DNA from: Nitrosopumilaceae archaeon
Lineage (GTDB): Archaea; Thermoproteota; Nitrososphaeria; Nitrososphaerales; Nitrosopumilaceae
Assembly (NCBI GenBank): GCA_965208905.1
Contig: OZ242365.1
Location: 2,016,001 to 2,080,000, forward strand
Direction: 5' to 3'
DNA: 64,000 bases
Shown: positions 33,424-47,897 of the stretch, in pieces
Layout: each line of letters starts with the position of its first letter
Numbering within the stretch: position 1 is the stretch's first letter
Notes under the pieces: generated by a model
The model's database searches: none
The model's input: only the letters and a program-made list of their open reading frames with translations
Told to the model about the DNA's origin: nothing
Made by a program: the position numbers and the translations under genes

Positions 33424-33468
33424 ATATCATTATGGGCATTACCGTATAAATACGATACATAATTGGGT

Positions 33469-33700
33469 GGGAATTATATACAAAAGTACAGCAGTCTTAA
33501 CCGCCTACTTTTCGTTGGCTTTCACCATTCAGGGTGCGTGTGTTTGGCATGCGCTTTGGAAGCGCGGTCTTGACTACCTGCCAGTCTCCTACAACCGGTG
33601 GTGGCGTGCGGTTGCGTAGGCTTATTCGGTCCCTCAAGTCCGTCCCGGACTTGATGCATAAACGACTTGCCTTTTGGGCGCGTCTTGAGTTTGGTTTTAT
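33469..33700 (-). ncRNA. Putative omega/reRNA scaffold of TnpB cassette 1
   Basis: Hairpins on - strand: TCAAGTCC/GGACTTGA, CCTAC..CAACCG/CGGTTGTAGG, GCGCTT/AAGCGC, TGGT-GAAA-GCCA, terminal hairpin 33481-33514. Confidence 0.55.
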
Positions 33701-34909
33701 GTAATCATAATTGTTGTTATAGTTGTTGTCTGGACTGTACATGATGTTGAATGCGCCGTTATAGTCGGCATGACATACAGTGCCGCAGTTCCGACACTTG
33801 AACTTTCTATCATGGTTCCACCTCTCATGTACAATTTCATTATTGTGCCAAATCTTGAATCCACCGTAGCGTTCGGTGTCCTTACTACAACATGCGCCAC
33901 ACCGTTTGGACGTATTGTAGGGTTTAACCTCTCTGATTTCCGTATTATGCTCAGGGGCTTTCTTTGTACACCAATCACGGACTTCACCGGCCTTACTCTC
34001 TTTTAGTGTGCGGTTCTTGCCTTTGGCGCAGTTGCCCCCCTTGCGGGTAAGATTCACCAAGTTGAGGTTCTCAAATTTTACCAAATCGCAGTCCACGCAC
34101 AGTTCCTTGCAAAAGTGTCTGTACTTATTCAACTGCCAGTTGTATAGCGTTTTGCGCTGCCGTTTCATGCTGTCATTTATCTTATTCCATCTGTTGCTGT
34201 TATGTGTACATCTGTCACGTTCGGACTGGAGTTTTCTAATGTGCTTGCCTATTTCATCATTGTACAATTTAAGAAGGCGTGTAGTACCGTCCGACAGTGC
34301 CACATATGCTGTCAACTTGCCTATGTCAACACCCGCCGTCAACCCTGTTATCTTCCTGTCCGGGATGTACTTTTGTATTGTAAGGTGTAACTCAAACTGG
34401 CGGTGACCGCGCCGTCTATCCGCATCACTCGTTATGTCAACAATCTTGTGTGACACTACGGTTTTGATGTTGGGTAGCCGCCCCTTCGTGATGCTGAACT
34501 GTGTGTCTGACTTGGGAAATGTGACCGTGTTGTGTTTGATTCGCTTTGGTGCACCAAGGAAGAATATCGGATATGTTTTACCGTCTTTGAGATGCGTACA
34601 GTCCTTCATTTCAATACCTGCCAGGATTGCACCGCGAATTAAGTGTAGTGGTGCGCATTCCTTGGGGTCGGTATTATCCCATTCTGCCATCATGCTTTTG
34701 GCAACCGTAACGCATGTCAATGCGCTTCGGGGATACGGACTAGGACTACTGCTGGCAGTGAACTGCACGTTCAAGTTACGACACATAACACCTAGTTCAA
34801 CCCACATACGGCTTTCGGCCTCCAGACTTTCAACATATGAGGTGATTATACTATTTGTCTTTAGGCGGTATTTGCGGGTTCTATAGATTATACTCTTCTT
34901 GGTCTGCAT
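33497..34909 (-). CDS. tnpB: TnpB/Cas12f-like RNA-guided RuvC nuclease (divergent N-terminus)
   Basis: RuvC-I GVDIG, RuvC-II FENLN, TSKRCGAC...FKCRNCG Zn finger, RuvC-III ADYNGAFNI; C-terminal tail overlaps structured RNA. Confidence 0.88.
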   Translation of the reverse strand: MQTKKSIIYRTRKYRLKTNSIITSYVESLEAESRMWVELGVMCRNLNVQFTASSSPSPYPRSALTCVTVAKSMMAEWDNTDPKECAPLHLIRGAILAGIEMKDCTHLKDGKTYPIFFLGAPKRIKHNTVTFPKSDTQFSITKGRLPNIKTVVSHKIVDITSDADRRRGHRQFELHLTIQKYIPDRKITGLTAGVDIGKLTAYVALSDGTTRLLKLYNDEIGKHIRKLQSERDRCTHNSNRWNKINDSMKRQRKTLYNWQLNKYRHFCKELCVDCDLVKFENLNLVNLTRKGGNCAKGKNRTLKESKAGEVRDWCTKKAPEHNTEIREVKPYNTSKRCGACCSKDTERYGGFKIWHNNEIVHERWNHDRKFKCRNCGTVCHADYNGAFNIMYSPDNNYNNNYDYIKPNSRRAQKASRLCIKSGTDLRDRISLRNRTPPPVVGDWQVVKTALPKRMPNTRTLNGESQRKVGG

Positions 34910-34979
34910 ATCACATATTATGATATTTCAGATATAAAGTTACATACCTCATATTTACTATATGATATGTATAGTACAG

Positions 34980-35107
34980 TCCCGACCACATGCCAGTCTG
35001 TCAAATTACGGCGCTGTTATACGGCATGCCAAACACACGCACCCTGAATGGCGAAAACCAACGAAAAATAGGCGGTTAAGCCTACTGTACTTTTGTAAGT
35101 AATTCCC
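34980..35107 (+). ncRNA. Putative second, outward-facing omega-RNA scaffold copy
   Basis: Diverged copy of the tnpB 3' scaffold, preceded by TATA-like TTTACTATAT near 34954-34963. Confidence 0.4.
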
Positions 35108-35156
35108 TAATTTCCCTATGAGAGATTTATTACACATTGTTTGTTTGTAAGTTACA

Positions 35157-36018: not shown

Positions 36019-36876
36019 TTATTCACACTTTTTACCTCCTGCATATATGCTATCCCTTGAGTTCTGCCAATATTGTTCGGCGAACTCAGAAGGTGCCAAG
36101 TACTGTATAGAAGAGTGAATTCTGTTATGATTGTAATCTTCAAATGCAGCGAGTATTGTCTCTTTGGCTTCCTGAATGTTCGCAAACTCACGGGGCCAGA
36201 CGTACTCCTTTTTGAGTGTCTTGTGGAAGGATTCGATATGTCCGTTTTGTTCGGGAGTGTTGATGTAGATGTATTCAAGAGTAATTCCCAACGCTGCCAT
36301 TGATGATCTAAATTCCCGACTAGTGTATTGAGTTCCATTATCGACTCTCAAAGTCAATCCCGGTAATGTTGGATTGGAGTCGGCTACGGCATTATTTACG
36401 GCCATGATAGCCTCGTGTCGTGTGGCACGACTCTCCAATACAAATGCCAACCATTGCCTGGTAAAGACGTCGATTACATTAAAACAGTAACCCCATCCGT
36501 CTCTACCGCACCAGATGTATGACATGTCCGATTCCCAGAACTGATTTGGAGCCTTTGGTTTTGGAATCTTTTTATTGGTACGTATTATCTCACGCTTGGT
36601 ACGTGATGGTTTACTCCATCCCAGTGCTTTGAATATACGTTTTATTGCCTTGCGGTTGATGGGACGATTCAACTCTCGTGAGGCTTGGGCAGCCATACGT
36701 CTTGTCCCATATGTCGGTCTTTTAGGTGCAATCTTTTGTACAATCTCTAGTACTTCGGGGTCCGATGACACGTTTCTGGGTGTAGGAGCATAATACCATG
36801 CAGTTTTGGAGACTCCGCAAAGAGCGAGTGACCTATTGAGGCCCAACACGTCATGTATGATACGTGCGGCGTTCAT
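36019..36876 (-). CDS. IS3-family transposase OrfB
   Basis: YGTRRM, WESDMSYI, DNGTQY, PEQNGHIESFHKTLKKE. Confidence 0.92.
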   Translation of the reverse strand: MNAARIIHDVLGLNRSLALCGVSKTAWYYAPTPRNVSSDPEVLEIVQKIAPKRPTYGTRRMAAQASRELNRPINRKAIKRIFKALGWSKPSRTKREIIRTNKKIPKPKAPNQFWESDMSYIWCGRDGWGYCFNVIDVFTRQWLAFVLESRATRHEAIMAVNNAVADSNPTLPGLTLRVDNGTQYTSREFRSSMAALGITLEYIYINTPEQNGHIESFHKTLKKEYVWPREFANIQEAKETILAAFEDYNHNRIHSSIQYLAPSEFAEQYWQNSRDSIYAGGKKCE

Positions 36877-37169
36877 TCTACCTCGCCCTCCAGCGCTTTT
36901 TTTAAAGCATCATTAGCCACGGCATACTCTCCGATGATTCTCTTAAGTGATGTAATCTCCTTTTTGTGCTTCTTGGCCTGTTTGGAAGCGTTAGAACCCT
37001 CAAACGAGCTGCGTCCGCCATCTGGAAACTTTTCTTTCCAATCGTATACGGTTCGTGGGGCCAAGTTGTGTTCGCGGCATATCTCGGCCATACTGGTCCT
37101 GGGATTGAATGTCTGGAGTACTATGTGGATCTTTTCATCTGTACTCAACTTTGATTTTTTATTTGTCAT
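36873..37169 (-). CDS. IS3-family transposase OrfA (HTH)
   Basis: EKIHIVL...ICREHNLAPRTVYDWK; A7G slippery run near end and ATGA overlap with orfB. Confidence 0.88.
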   Translation of the reverse strand: MTNKKSKLSTDEKIHIVLQTFNPRTSMAEICREHNLAPRTVYDWKEKFPDGGRSSFEGSNASKQAKKHKKEITSLKRIIGEYAVANDALKKALEGEVE

Positions 37170-37330
37170 ATGGTGTGTGCCCCCCAATTGCTAAAGTGTG
37201 CATCGACGATCGGTCTTATTCTAGCGGGGTCCGCGCCAGTAGTCGTGCATCAGTAGAGTTACATGCATTTATCGTTTTTACCGTATGGTGCAGCGATACC
37301 TTATAACGGGGGATGTTTTTGGTTTAAAAC

Positions 37331-46428: not shown

Positions 46429-46554
46429 TATACACTTGAAAACACTCTCGATATTTCATTGTTGTCTATAATTTGTCGGGAATTATATACCTGGGTAGAC
46501 AAGGCTAGTTCTGGAGGGTACATGTTTATAAAGTATTATGATGTATAAAACTAC

Positions 46555-47892
46555 ATGTATCGATCTTATGGCTTCCGCGTAAACCTGACGCGCTCTCAGG
46601 CGCGTCACATATCCAAAATACGGGACTCACAGCGGTTCGTGTACAACTGGGCCGTGGAGCGGCTGCTTACTAACCCCACACTCACTACATATGACCTCTC
46701 CAGAGAGTTCACCAAGGTGAGGCGTTCCGTATCGTGGCTGCAAACAGTGGAGCGCATATACCAAAATACGGCCATCCATCAGGCCCGCACTGCTGCGGAT
46801 GTCTCGAACAAATACGGCAACGGCGAGCTGAGTTTCCGCGCCAGAAAGCGCGATAATAAAAAGGCAGTATCATGTGATGTACAGCCGCGATTTGTGGACA
46901 ACAGGCACGCGTCATTGCCGGGCCTTGGTGTTGTTGAGTTGCCTGAGGAGCAGCCATATCAATTTCCACACAACTGGCTGTATGGCTCAAGGTCTTTCCA
47001 TTTGGTGCAGGTTACACCAAAGTCGTGGGGGCACGTCAAGTCATGTGACCATATCTATCGGCTGCACATAACATATGACGTACCAGTACCCGAACGGCGC
47101 GCCAAGACCGGTGTTGTTGCCGGCATAGACAGGGGGATAACAAATCCAACGGTTGTCTGTAAGACAGACCACAACACTTCGTGTATAATATCGTATGACA
47201 CGGCAACCGCATTCCGCACGAACCGTACATGGAATGATGGTGTGCGCCGTACCATATCACACCACAACAAGCATTCTCATACAACACACAAGATGAAACG
47301 CAAACGAGAAAAGTACAATCGTGGTAATGCGAATGACCGCGAGTATGCGGAGTGGCTTCTAGCCAAGAAGATATGCGAGGGCGTGGATGTAATATATGTC
47401 GAACAGCTCAACCTTGAGGCCATGAGCAGGCGCGGTGGTAGGCACAAGAAAGGTCTGAACAGGGGAATGAGGTTTATTCGGCATTATGCAATATTGCGAA
47501 AGATCCGCACCATCGCAGAGCGGCTGGGCATCCGTGTAGTAGAGGTAAGTCCAAAGCACACAAGCCAGGAGTGCAGTGTGTGCGGCTACACAAACAAGGA
47601 GAACCGAGACGGGGAGACATTCAAGTGTCTCAAATGTGACCACGTGGCAAACGCCGACGGCAATGCGTCGGTGAATATGATTCAACGGGGGACCGGTATG
47701 AAGGTTCCCGCGGGGGAAGGAATGGCCCTCGAAAGGCGTGAAATGGGCCGGACCCGGAAGCCACCTGTTTGTGCAGTTCCGGACGCCAGACGGCGGCGTG
47801 AGAATCAAGCGTGCAATCGACCCAAAACATCAAGCGTCATGAAGCACCTGGGAATGTACGCGTATGTTACGCGTGCATACCCAGGTATATAA
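46555..47892 (+). CDS. tnpB: TnpB RNA-guided RuvC nuclease
   Basis: IS605-OrfB-like N-terminus (SYGFRV..T..Q...RFVYNWA), GIDRG, VEQLN, TSQECSVCG...FKCLKC, NADGNASVN; TTTATAAA at 46527-46534. Confidence 0.92.
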   Translation: MYRSYGFRVNLTRSQARHISKIRDSQRFVYNWAVERLLTNPTLTTYDLSREFTKVRRSVSWLQTVERIYQNTAIHQARTAADVSNKYGNGELSFRARKRDNKKAVSCDVQPRFVDNRHASLPGLGVVELPEEQPYQFPHNWLYGSRSFHLVQVTPKSWGHVKSCDHIYRLHITYDVPVPERRAKTGVVAGIDRGITNPTVVCKTDHNTSCIISYDTATAFRTNRTWNDGVRRTISHHNKHSHTTHKMKRKREKYNRGNANDREYAEWLLAKKICEGVDVIYVEQLNLEAMSRRGGRHKKGLNRGMRFIRHYAILRKIRTIAERLGIRVVEVSPKHTSQECSVCGYTNKENRDGETFKCLKCDHVANADGNASVNMIQRGTGMKVPAGEGMALERREMGRTRKPPVCAVPDARRRRENQACNRPKTSSVMKHLGMYAYVTRAYPGI

Positions 47893-47897
47893 TTCCC
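47688..47897 (+). ncRNA. Putative omega/reRNA scaffold of TnpB cassette 2
   Basis: GGGACC/GGTTCC, GGCCC/GGGCC and CCGGAA/TTCCGG stems; long terminal hairpin 47846-47886 overlapping the TIR. Confidence 0.6.

Follow-up and report, generated by a model that had tools for sequence, protein, structure and literature searches.

A tnpB/omega-RNA element with IS1595-type ends and long inverted arms in a Nitrosopumilaceae archaeon, probably mobilised in trans

Introduction

The RNA-guided nuclease TnpB is the ancestor of Cas12, and is thought to persist by re-homing IS200/IS605 or IS607 elements after their scarless excision by TnpA. Insertion sequences of the IS1595 family, as catalogued in ISfinder, generate 8-bp direct repeats, have ends of the form ggnnatTAT in the ISNwi1 group, and can carry passenger genes. 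The subject of this analysis is a 1,639-bp element at positions 33469–35107 (minus strand) of a 64,000-nucleotide stretch of the genome of a Nitrosopumilaceae archaeon (assembly GCA_965208905.1, contig OZ242365.1, positions 2,016,001 to 2,080,000); the whole of this stretch is referred to as the window. The sole cargo of the element is tnpB together with the gene for its guide RNA (omega-RNA), and the element is bounded by terminal inverted repeats (TIRs). It is probably a non-autonomous derivative of the IS1595 (DDE) family which is mobilised in trans, with long inverted arms that are derived and with flanks that have been exchanged with those of an identical copy elsewhere in the genome.

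TnpBs linked to DDE transposases (the IS630 “DDE-6” branch), with symmetric ends, have been described by Altae-Tran et al. 2023 (PMC10691335), and the solo TnpBs in that paper which share the ends of transposase-bearing elements suggested mobilisation in trans. In the relevant sections of a 2026 review (PMC13565253), TnpB–DDE associations are given for ISL2, IS630 and IS1031 and are regarded as rare in prokaryotes; those sections also state that, in Fanzors, the target-adjacent motif (TAM) includes the 5′ duplication and the scaffold includes the 3′ one. That tnpB-only copies have expanded greatly in archaea is reported in excerpts from PMC3119063. Within the literature covered, which takes in PMC10691335 apart from its supplements, neither a prokaryotic solo tnpB in IS1595-type ends nor a TAM beside a DDE target duplication was found.

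A mobile unit present in two identical copies

The genome that contains the window (G000) is a single contig of 2.21 Mb and is 99.57% complete. The ends of the element are named in the orientation of tnpB, so that the left end is at 35107 and the right end at 33469; the window element is copy A, and copy B lies at genome 1455264–1456902. Copy B is 100% identical to copy A, colinear and likewise 1,639 bp long, and the identity ends at both termini, with two chance bases (TA) common to both right flanks. In another genome of the same genus (G083), both insertion sites are empty, and the flanks are 96–97% identical. Since copy B stops at the TIRs and both sites are empty in G083, copy A can be regarded as a mobile unit.

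The element ends in two inverted repeat arms of 100 nt, found by repeat search and 86% complementary: the right-end arm at 33469–33568 and the left-end arm at 35008–35107. An 84-bp inverted recurrence upstream of tnpB had been reported in an earlier, sequence-only reading of the window, and BLAST against the element's own genome recovered it at the same value (33469–33552 versus 35024–35107 inverted, 77/84, 92%). The runner-up among inverted pairs within the same 2.6 kb is only 26 nt, and a 100-nt inverted repeat is far above chance. The outer 23 nt of the right-end arm form the TIR core, GGGAATTATATACAAAAGTACAG, from which the left core, GGGAATTACTTACAAAAGTACAG, differs by two mismatches.

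The only long frame of the element is tnpB (33497–34909, minus strand; 470 aa in the list of open reading frames), which enters the right-end arm and has its stop 28 nt from the terminus; no DDE_Tnp_IS1595 transposase is encoded. The TnpB zinc ribbon (PF07282) was matched with 54.5 bits (cut-off 26.3; 1.3e-14) over residues 309–389, and the RuvC-like core PF01385 (OrfB_IS605) with 23.1 bits, which is under its cut-off of 30.5. A phmmer comparison with the solved TnpB 9nzp_A (9.4e-5) aligned GVDIG with GVDLG and HADYN with NADRN, a region which presumably contributes the catalytic D/E/D residues. The tnpB promoter is likely to be the box CTTTATATC at 34931–34939 (minus strand), 22 nt upstream of the ATG: an CTTTATAT box lies 22–30 nt before the ATG in six of the seven left-end regions compared. 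The exception is the relative L028, in which no CTTTATAT box was seen and no ATG was located either.

Close relatives are few. At E <= 1e-60 they were found in 2/201 genomes of the family, G000 and G083; a search of genome contigs gave three loci, all in one record, and metagenome contigs, searched with the single protein and with a three-sequence alignment, gave none. G000 itself has a 77%-identical relative at genome 913845–915398. The clade of TnpBs around copy A is small (seven lineages in two genomes), and statistics on covariation and on the arms are correspondingly weak. Three of the relatives in G083 (L025, L026/L032 and L028/L030) are split by insertions of about 1–2 kb or truncated.

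Termini shared with IS1595-family transposase elements

The terminal sequence GGGAATTATA(TAC) is common to copy A and to three types of element that bear an IS1595 transposase, namely those at genome 1043578–1046414 and 1770047–1772736 (2.7–2.8 kb) and a 2.1-kb pair, with identity over the first 10–13 nt. Four intact IS1595-family DDE transposase frames of 320–323 aa are present in the genome (PF12762, 1.1e-40; PF12760, a zinc ribbon, 1.6e-5). The 23-nt GGGAATTATATACAAAAGTACAG has 43 matches in the genome at four mismatches or fewer, most of which bound a family of 1,466-bp elements that likewise encode TnpB, and the 12-mer GGGAATTATATA, with at most one mismatch, occurs 92 times, compared with about 15 expected. 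PF07282 was matched 75 times in the genome, 74 of them above the cut-off.

Other copies carry the target duplications that are expected of DDE transposition in the IS1595 family. Among TnpB elements of this TIR type, the 8-bp duplication is perfect (8/8) in 12 of 20 and 7/8 in two more; within the clade of copy A it is 8/8 for L021, L024, L026/L032 and L028/L030, and 7/8 for L023. The elements bearing an IS1595 transposase are also flanked by 8-bp duplications. A transposase gene was found inside none of the 20 TnpB elements examined with this type of TIR. Y1 TnpA (PF01797) had no match in the genome, complete to the extent given above, and neither did Resolvase-type serine recombinases; five further genomes of the genus all have IS1595 DDE transposases (5/5) and no Y1 TnpA (0/5). 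The comparison of ends suggests that copy A was moved in trans by IS1595-family transposases encoded elsewhere in the genome.

The 2.7–2.8-kb IS1595 elements (1043578–1046414 and 1770047–1772736) have a methyltransferase-HNH-like passenger frame, as read by eye from the translation. There are also two short elements with GGGAATTA-type ends, G000:C1:658457–658571 (115 bp) and 882738–882782 (a 45-bp palindrome), which are probable miniature derivatives.

Exchange of flanks between the two copies

The sequence-only reading had noted that copy A has no target duplication, and this is the case: AATTGGGT stands at the window-left flank and TAATTTCC at the window-right flank. In G083, however, where both sites are empty, the left flank of copy A is contiguous with the right flank of copy B, and the terminal bases of the left flank of B join the right flank of A, with a single TAATTTCC present. 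In the window genome TAATTTCC adjoins the right end of B and the left end of A. From these junctions it appears that copies A and B have swapped flanks by homologous recombination, and this exchange explains the missing duplication at copy A. With the exchange undone, site 1 has a perfect 8-bp duplication of TAATTTCC. For site 2, the right-end copy of the putative duplication is AATTGGGT (33461–33468) and its partner is TATGTGGT, beside the left end of copy B (genome 1456903–1456910), with 5/8 positions matching; the empty site 2 of G083 reads AATTTGGT.

The target at site 1 is formed by the outermost 8 bp of a different TIR-like sequence (GGAAATTACATACC...AAGTTCACAGAACT), seen in G083 (L036, about 1480–1540) and at G000:C1:1455230–1455263. 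By this comparison, the element is inserted exactly at the tip of the end of another element. The possibility that the right-end flank of copy B was a decayed TIR of the same element was considered and rejected, as it is the end of the other TIR-like sequence that was the target.

The neighbours of copy A are a Cys-rich ORF/OFOR operon (POR domains) on one side and a JAB-domain gene on the other, as had been described for this locus. An IS3-type frame pair (HTH_Tnp_1, then rve/rve_3) lies at window 36019–37187, 900 bp to the right of the element, and is unrelated to its ends.

An omega-RNA at the right end

The right end had been read as encoding the omega-RNA of the cassette, and both RNA and comparative data now speak for this. 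The putative scaffold region is about 177 nt long (33469–33645) and is assigned to the minus strand on the basis of the orientation of tnpB. The RNA data comprised four runs, as assembled contigs without strand or true ends. In run X1, a sponge metatranscriptome, a 179-nt contig of depth 18 spans exactly 33467–33645; that run has no contig on the body of tnpB, and the neighbouring OFOR gene has a depth of 18.6. Run X2 has one contig internal to tnpB. The X1 contig is consistent with an abundant omega-RNA, some 177 nt long, whose end coincides with the boundary of the element.

Comparison of the RNA across copies, using six right ends of the clade, gave conserved blocks and conserved helices, of which one, an arm hairpin at the inner edge, has compensatory changes. 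RNAalifold pairs the 3′ blocks CCCUGAA and UGCCA with the 5′ segments UUGAGGG and UGGCA, respectively; these long-range pairs are predicted rather than proven, because they are invariant in the six sequences. Rfam at gathering thresholds had no match in the window, and thermodynamic folding was uninformative, both for the right-end RNA (177 nt, z = -0.47) and for a putative left-end RNA (123 nt, z = +0.33).

Immediately 3′ of the right end, at 33449–33468 (minus strand), is the predicted guide-encoding flank, ACCCAATTATGTATCG..., a role which follows by analogy with the architecture of TnpB and its omega-RNA. This flank overlies the promoter of the Cys-rich ORF/OFOR operon.

Origin of the left arm

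The left end is an inverted copy of part of the omega-RNA gene, namely its 3′ 84–100 nt, in agreement with the sequence-only reading. It does not contain the 5′ 77 nt, which hold the predicted pairing partners of the conserved 3′ blocks, and these have no counterpart elsewhere at the left end. Long ends are also present in other members of the clade. The left end consists of a TIR of only about 22–25 nt in four of the seven lineages (L021, L024, L025 and L026/L032), whereas about 50 nt of right-end sequence is present at the left end of L028/L030 and 95–100 nt in A/B and L023 (about 95 nt in the latter). In the TnpB tree, for which the rows of three interrupted copies were pieced together from tblastn segments, copy A is basal and the long-armed L023 is sister to the short-armed L026/L032 (support 0.907). 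Each long or intermediate arm agrees in its variable segment with its own right end, and not with that of the other long-armed element. As the arms match their own right ends and the long-armed lineages are not monophyletic, right-end sequence was evidently transferred to the left end on at least two or three independent occasions in the clade. A plausible route would be template switching, or conversion seeded by the common TIR.

Two other TnpB families (G000:C1 ~376983–378293 and ~402508–403851) have inverted copies of right-end sequence at their left ends, of 134 nt (about 92%) and about 73 nt, respectively; the 134-nt arm overlaps the 3′ end of its tnpB frame.

Hairpins had been reported at equivalent positions of the two arms. 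Both are indeed present on the plus strand at the inner edges of the arms (GCGCTT-tgg-AAGCGC at 33549–33563 and GCTGT-tat-ACGGC at 35013–35027), but they are shifted in register, so that the differences between them are not simple compensatory changes. Similarly, the AT-rich TTTACTATAT is present at 34954–34963, where a TATA-like box pointing at the left arm had been proposed, but the tract that surrounds it is homologous in relatives with short left ends and is not specific to the long arm. The left arm (35008–35107) has no contig in any of the four RNA runs, although such lack of cover is not evidence. Most likely, the left arm is a by-product or an extended TIR rather than a second guide-RNA gene.

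A one-sided motif beside the target duplication

Motif positions are counted in the orientation of tnpB, in which -9 is the base directly 5′ of the left-side 8-bp duplication. At copy A the duplication copy TAATTTCC (35108–35115) is followed in the window by CTAT (the two together spanning 35108–35119); thus, in the orientation of tnpB, ATAG lies directly 5′ of the duplication and is TAM-like. Elements with the GGGAATTA-type TIR have G at -9 in 15/20 cases (binomial 1e-6), A at -12 in 12/20 and T at -11 in 11/20, compared with 4/20 for the mirrored C at +9 on the right side. G is found at -9 in all eight members of the clade of copy A, in all four further left ends in G018 (one of which has a 7-bp duplication), and in none of the three elements of a 1,420-bp family.

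The window contains another tnpB cassette of 1,420 bp (46478–47897), whose TIR is GGGAATTATATACCTGGGTAG, whose 8-bp duplication (AATTTGTC) is perfect and which encodes a TnpB of 447 aa (PF07282, 1.2e-17; PF01385 and HTH_OrfB above their cut-offs). Its left flank is CTAT, with no G at -9, unlike that of the other families.

A second TIR class, GGTTCCTCCCGCAAAGTCGGGTG, which presumably resembles the ends of the IS6 family, has 59 matches and 8-bp duplications, and bounds two other TnpB families. In one family, TA is present at -10/-9 in 13/14 left ends, versus 2/17 of the rows filed as right ends. In the other, TTG is present in 5/9 rows and G at -9 in 6/9, one further TTG row having been misclassified by the sorting rule. 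As two TnpB families with the same TIR have differing motifs (TA versus TTG), the flank motif follows the TnpB family and not the ends. The left-only motifs (G, TA or TTG) look like TAMs: their position at the empty site is where a TAM would have to lie for a guide that consists of the duplicated 8 bp and the right flank. A promoter role for the flank motif was considered and rejected, because its position is unsuitable.

Examples of the GGTTCCTCCCGCAAAGTCGGGTG class are G000:C1:60267–61884 and 239554–241169, and a solitary end lies at window 16873. A search for a partner transposase of this class (GGTTCCTCCCGC...) found none: the 13 above-cut-off matches to PF13610 have other ends, and the 154-aa frame of a TIR-bounded 1.5-kb element (genome 926302–927837) had no Pfam match.

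Proposed mechanism

In the explanation that is considered probable, the element would have retained IS1595-type termini, with tnpB and the omega-RNA gene as sole cargo. The IS1595-family transposases of the genome would move it in trans and create the 8-bp duplications, standing in for the Y1 TnpA of IS200/IS605, which is missing from the genome. Transcription of the omega-RNA would begin inside tnpB at its 3′ end, cross the right-end TIR and run on into the flank, such that the guide would consist of the duplicated 8 bp and the right flank. TnpB could then cut an empty site, in which the lone 8-bp target is directly preceded, on its 5′ side, by the TAM-like base or motif. The 3′ half of the omega-RNA gene would have been copied, inverted, onto the left end, repeatedly in the clade, giving ends of 84–100 nt; and the identical copies A and B would have exchanged flanks by homologous recombination, leaving no duplication at A.

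Several observations weigh against parts of this explanation. The link between the transposases and these ends comes from sequence comparison, and past the first 10–13 nt the TIRs of the cargo and transposase elements differ. The RNA support for the right end is one strandless contig in one of the four runs. The duplication at site 2 is imperfect even though the two copies are 100% identical, and further rearrangements would be needed, because one reciprocal exchange between direct copies would divide the chromosome. As regards the arms, 42 of the 84 columns are invariant among the six right ends, and only one of the seven left-arm mismatches lies in these (counted by hand on the arm alignment; Fisher p ~0.1), and the sparing of the invariant blocks in the left arm of copy A could reflect constraint; the recurrence of long inverted right-end copies in other TnpB families (134 and 73 nt) could mean selection. 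Lastly, a symmetric DDE transposase alone does not account for a motif that is left-only and specific to the TnpB family.

A more speculative reading is a coupling of TAM recognition by TnpB to DDE-type transposition, the tnpB-only elements with DDE-type TIRs and 8-bp duplications lying in a single orientation relative to the motif. TnpB would act either in the choice of site and orientation or by re-homing elements after excision, so that only TAM-adjacent insertions survive; such a coupling is conceivable but well short of probable. In a comparison of copy age, the twelve copies of about 1.47 kb examined are 80–98% identical to their nearest copy, and are old; only A and B are young, and both have G at -9. 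If TnpB and its omega-RNA do help to choose site and orientation, this would be a simple, naturally occurring forerunner of transposition guided by Cas12k. Under such a coupling, the copied 3′ module of the omega-RNA could give some elements a second usable end. The left-only, TnpB-specific motif in any case raises testable questions, concerning the identity of the TAM and the influence of TnpB on where DDE insertions occur and which of them persist.

Alternative explanations

The long arms may have a function other than that of extended ends, for which there are three options. Recombination between the 100-nt arms could invert the core, which would join the 5′ half of the omega-RNA to the opposite arm and make the opposite flank the guide; transcription of the left arm inwards could give an RNA that is antisense to the omega-RNA or that forms a 5′/3′ panhandle in the tnpB mRNA; or longer, matched ends could transpose better. 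The independent origin of the arms, each matching its own right end, and the retention of invariant blocks in the left arm of copy A are what would be expected from a function, and inversion of the core of an insertion sequence by TIR recombination has been described (PMC3004938). Core inversion would, however, place the TAM-like motif on the wrong side, and no copy with an inverted core was seen, the two identical copies being colinear; a left-arm transcript finds no support among the RNA contigs, and the short-armed relatives are equally mobile, with perfect duplications. Even taken jointly, these options appear unlikely.

The sequence-only reading had proposed that both ends are transcribed outward, giving two guides. 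The left arm would then yield a shortened omega-RNA whose guide is the window-right flank, TAATTTCCCTATGAG.... In favour of this, the conserved blocks GCCAAACACACGCACCCTGAATGG and CCAACGA are unchanged in the 84-nt copy (92% identity), the corresponding inner position could fold into a small hairpin, and L023 and two further TnpB families have long arms as well. Trimming of the 5′ stems is possible in the ISDra2 omega-RNA. As a DDE element may insert either way round, having two guides would make it twice as likely that a TAM is available. Nevertheless, the arm lacks the 5′ pairing partners described above, and the left arm of L023 has two changes in the CCCTGAATGG block, which is invariant in 6/6 right ends. 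The “TATA” tract is shared with short-armed relatives, and TIRs of about 22–25 nt suffice in four of the seven lineages of the clade. The one-sidedness of the TAM-like G also counts against a second guide, since a left-end guide would usually miss the TAM; at the insertion sites of long-armed elements the mirrored G is present in 1/3, which is about background. A dual-guide element is thus a rather improbable explanation, and a tnpB gene flanked by long inverted ends should not, on that ground alone, be taken to have two guides.

An ordinary IS200/IS605 (IS1341-type) tnpB-only element, moved in trans by a Y1 TnpA or an IS607 serine recombinase, or with TnpB itself as transposase, would have just this cargo, i.e., tnpB and a 3′ omega-RNA, and TnpB has historically been annotated as a transposase. 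But copy A has TIRs and belongs to a group of elements with 8-bp duplications, features lacking in that family according to the relevant portions of PMC13565253 and PMC3119063; Y1 TnpA and Resolvase had no match in the genome, nor Y1 TnpA in the other five members of the genus; and no evidence for integration catalysed by TnpB was found in the portions of the literature consulted. This explanation is very improbable.

A one-off chimera of two sibling right ends, joined by rearrangement at the locus as the sequence-only reading had offered in the alternative, would give a left arm of right-end sequence and no target duplication at copy A, yet it is scarcely credible given the two identical copies with the same arms, the arms of L023 (about 95 nt) and L028/L030 (about 50 nt), a left interior and tnpB promoter homologous to those of short-armed relatives, and the flank exchange that the empty sites of G083 reveal behind the missing duplication.

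Comparison with known systems

The element shares several features with the DDE-linked TnpBs of IS630, ISL2 and IS1031, as far as these are set out in the sections cited of PMC10691335 and PMC13565253: symmetric inverted ends rather than asymmetric ends of the IS605 type, a 3′ end of tnpB within 250 bp of the transposon end, and solo tnpB copies that carry the ends of transposase-bearing elements. It differs in that its ends are of the IS1595 type, a family which is not named in those sections, in its 8-bp duplications with a TAM-like motif just outside them, and in its left end, where the omega-RNA gene is repeated in inverted orientation over a long stretch, its 3′ half.

With the IS1341 group, the element has in common a single tnpB, an omega-RNA that overlaps the 3′ end of the gene, and a guide that would be taken from the right flank. 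That family, in the treatments of it cited above, has neither TIRs nor duplications, has subterminal hairpins, and needs Y1 TnpA, whereas here there are TIRs of 23–100 nt, 8-bp duplications, and no TnpA in the genome. How solo TnpBs can spread without TnpA would, in this genome with its 75 TnpB-domain matches, have a concrete answer, i.e., they ride on borrowed DDE ends.

IS1595 elements with passengers resemble copy A in their termini (GGGAATTAT...), in their 8-bp duplications and in carrying passenger genes. Copy A has no transposase gene of its own, and would thus be classed as a cargo-bearing non-autonomous element and not as an IS1595 insertion sequence proper; furthermore, its passenger is an RNA-guided nuclease, the guide RNA of which must read out through the TIR.

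Finally, Fanzors in eukaryotic DDE transposons, to which the element would be a prokaryotic parallel, are likewise RNA-guided nucleases within transposons that have TIRs and make target duplications, with a guide derived from the flank. In Fanzors the duplications are divided between TAM and scaffold, whereas in the present element the 8-bp duplication does not include the TAM-like motif, which is external to it, and would itself form the first 8 nt of the guide.

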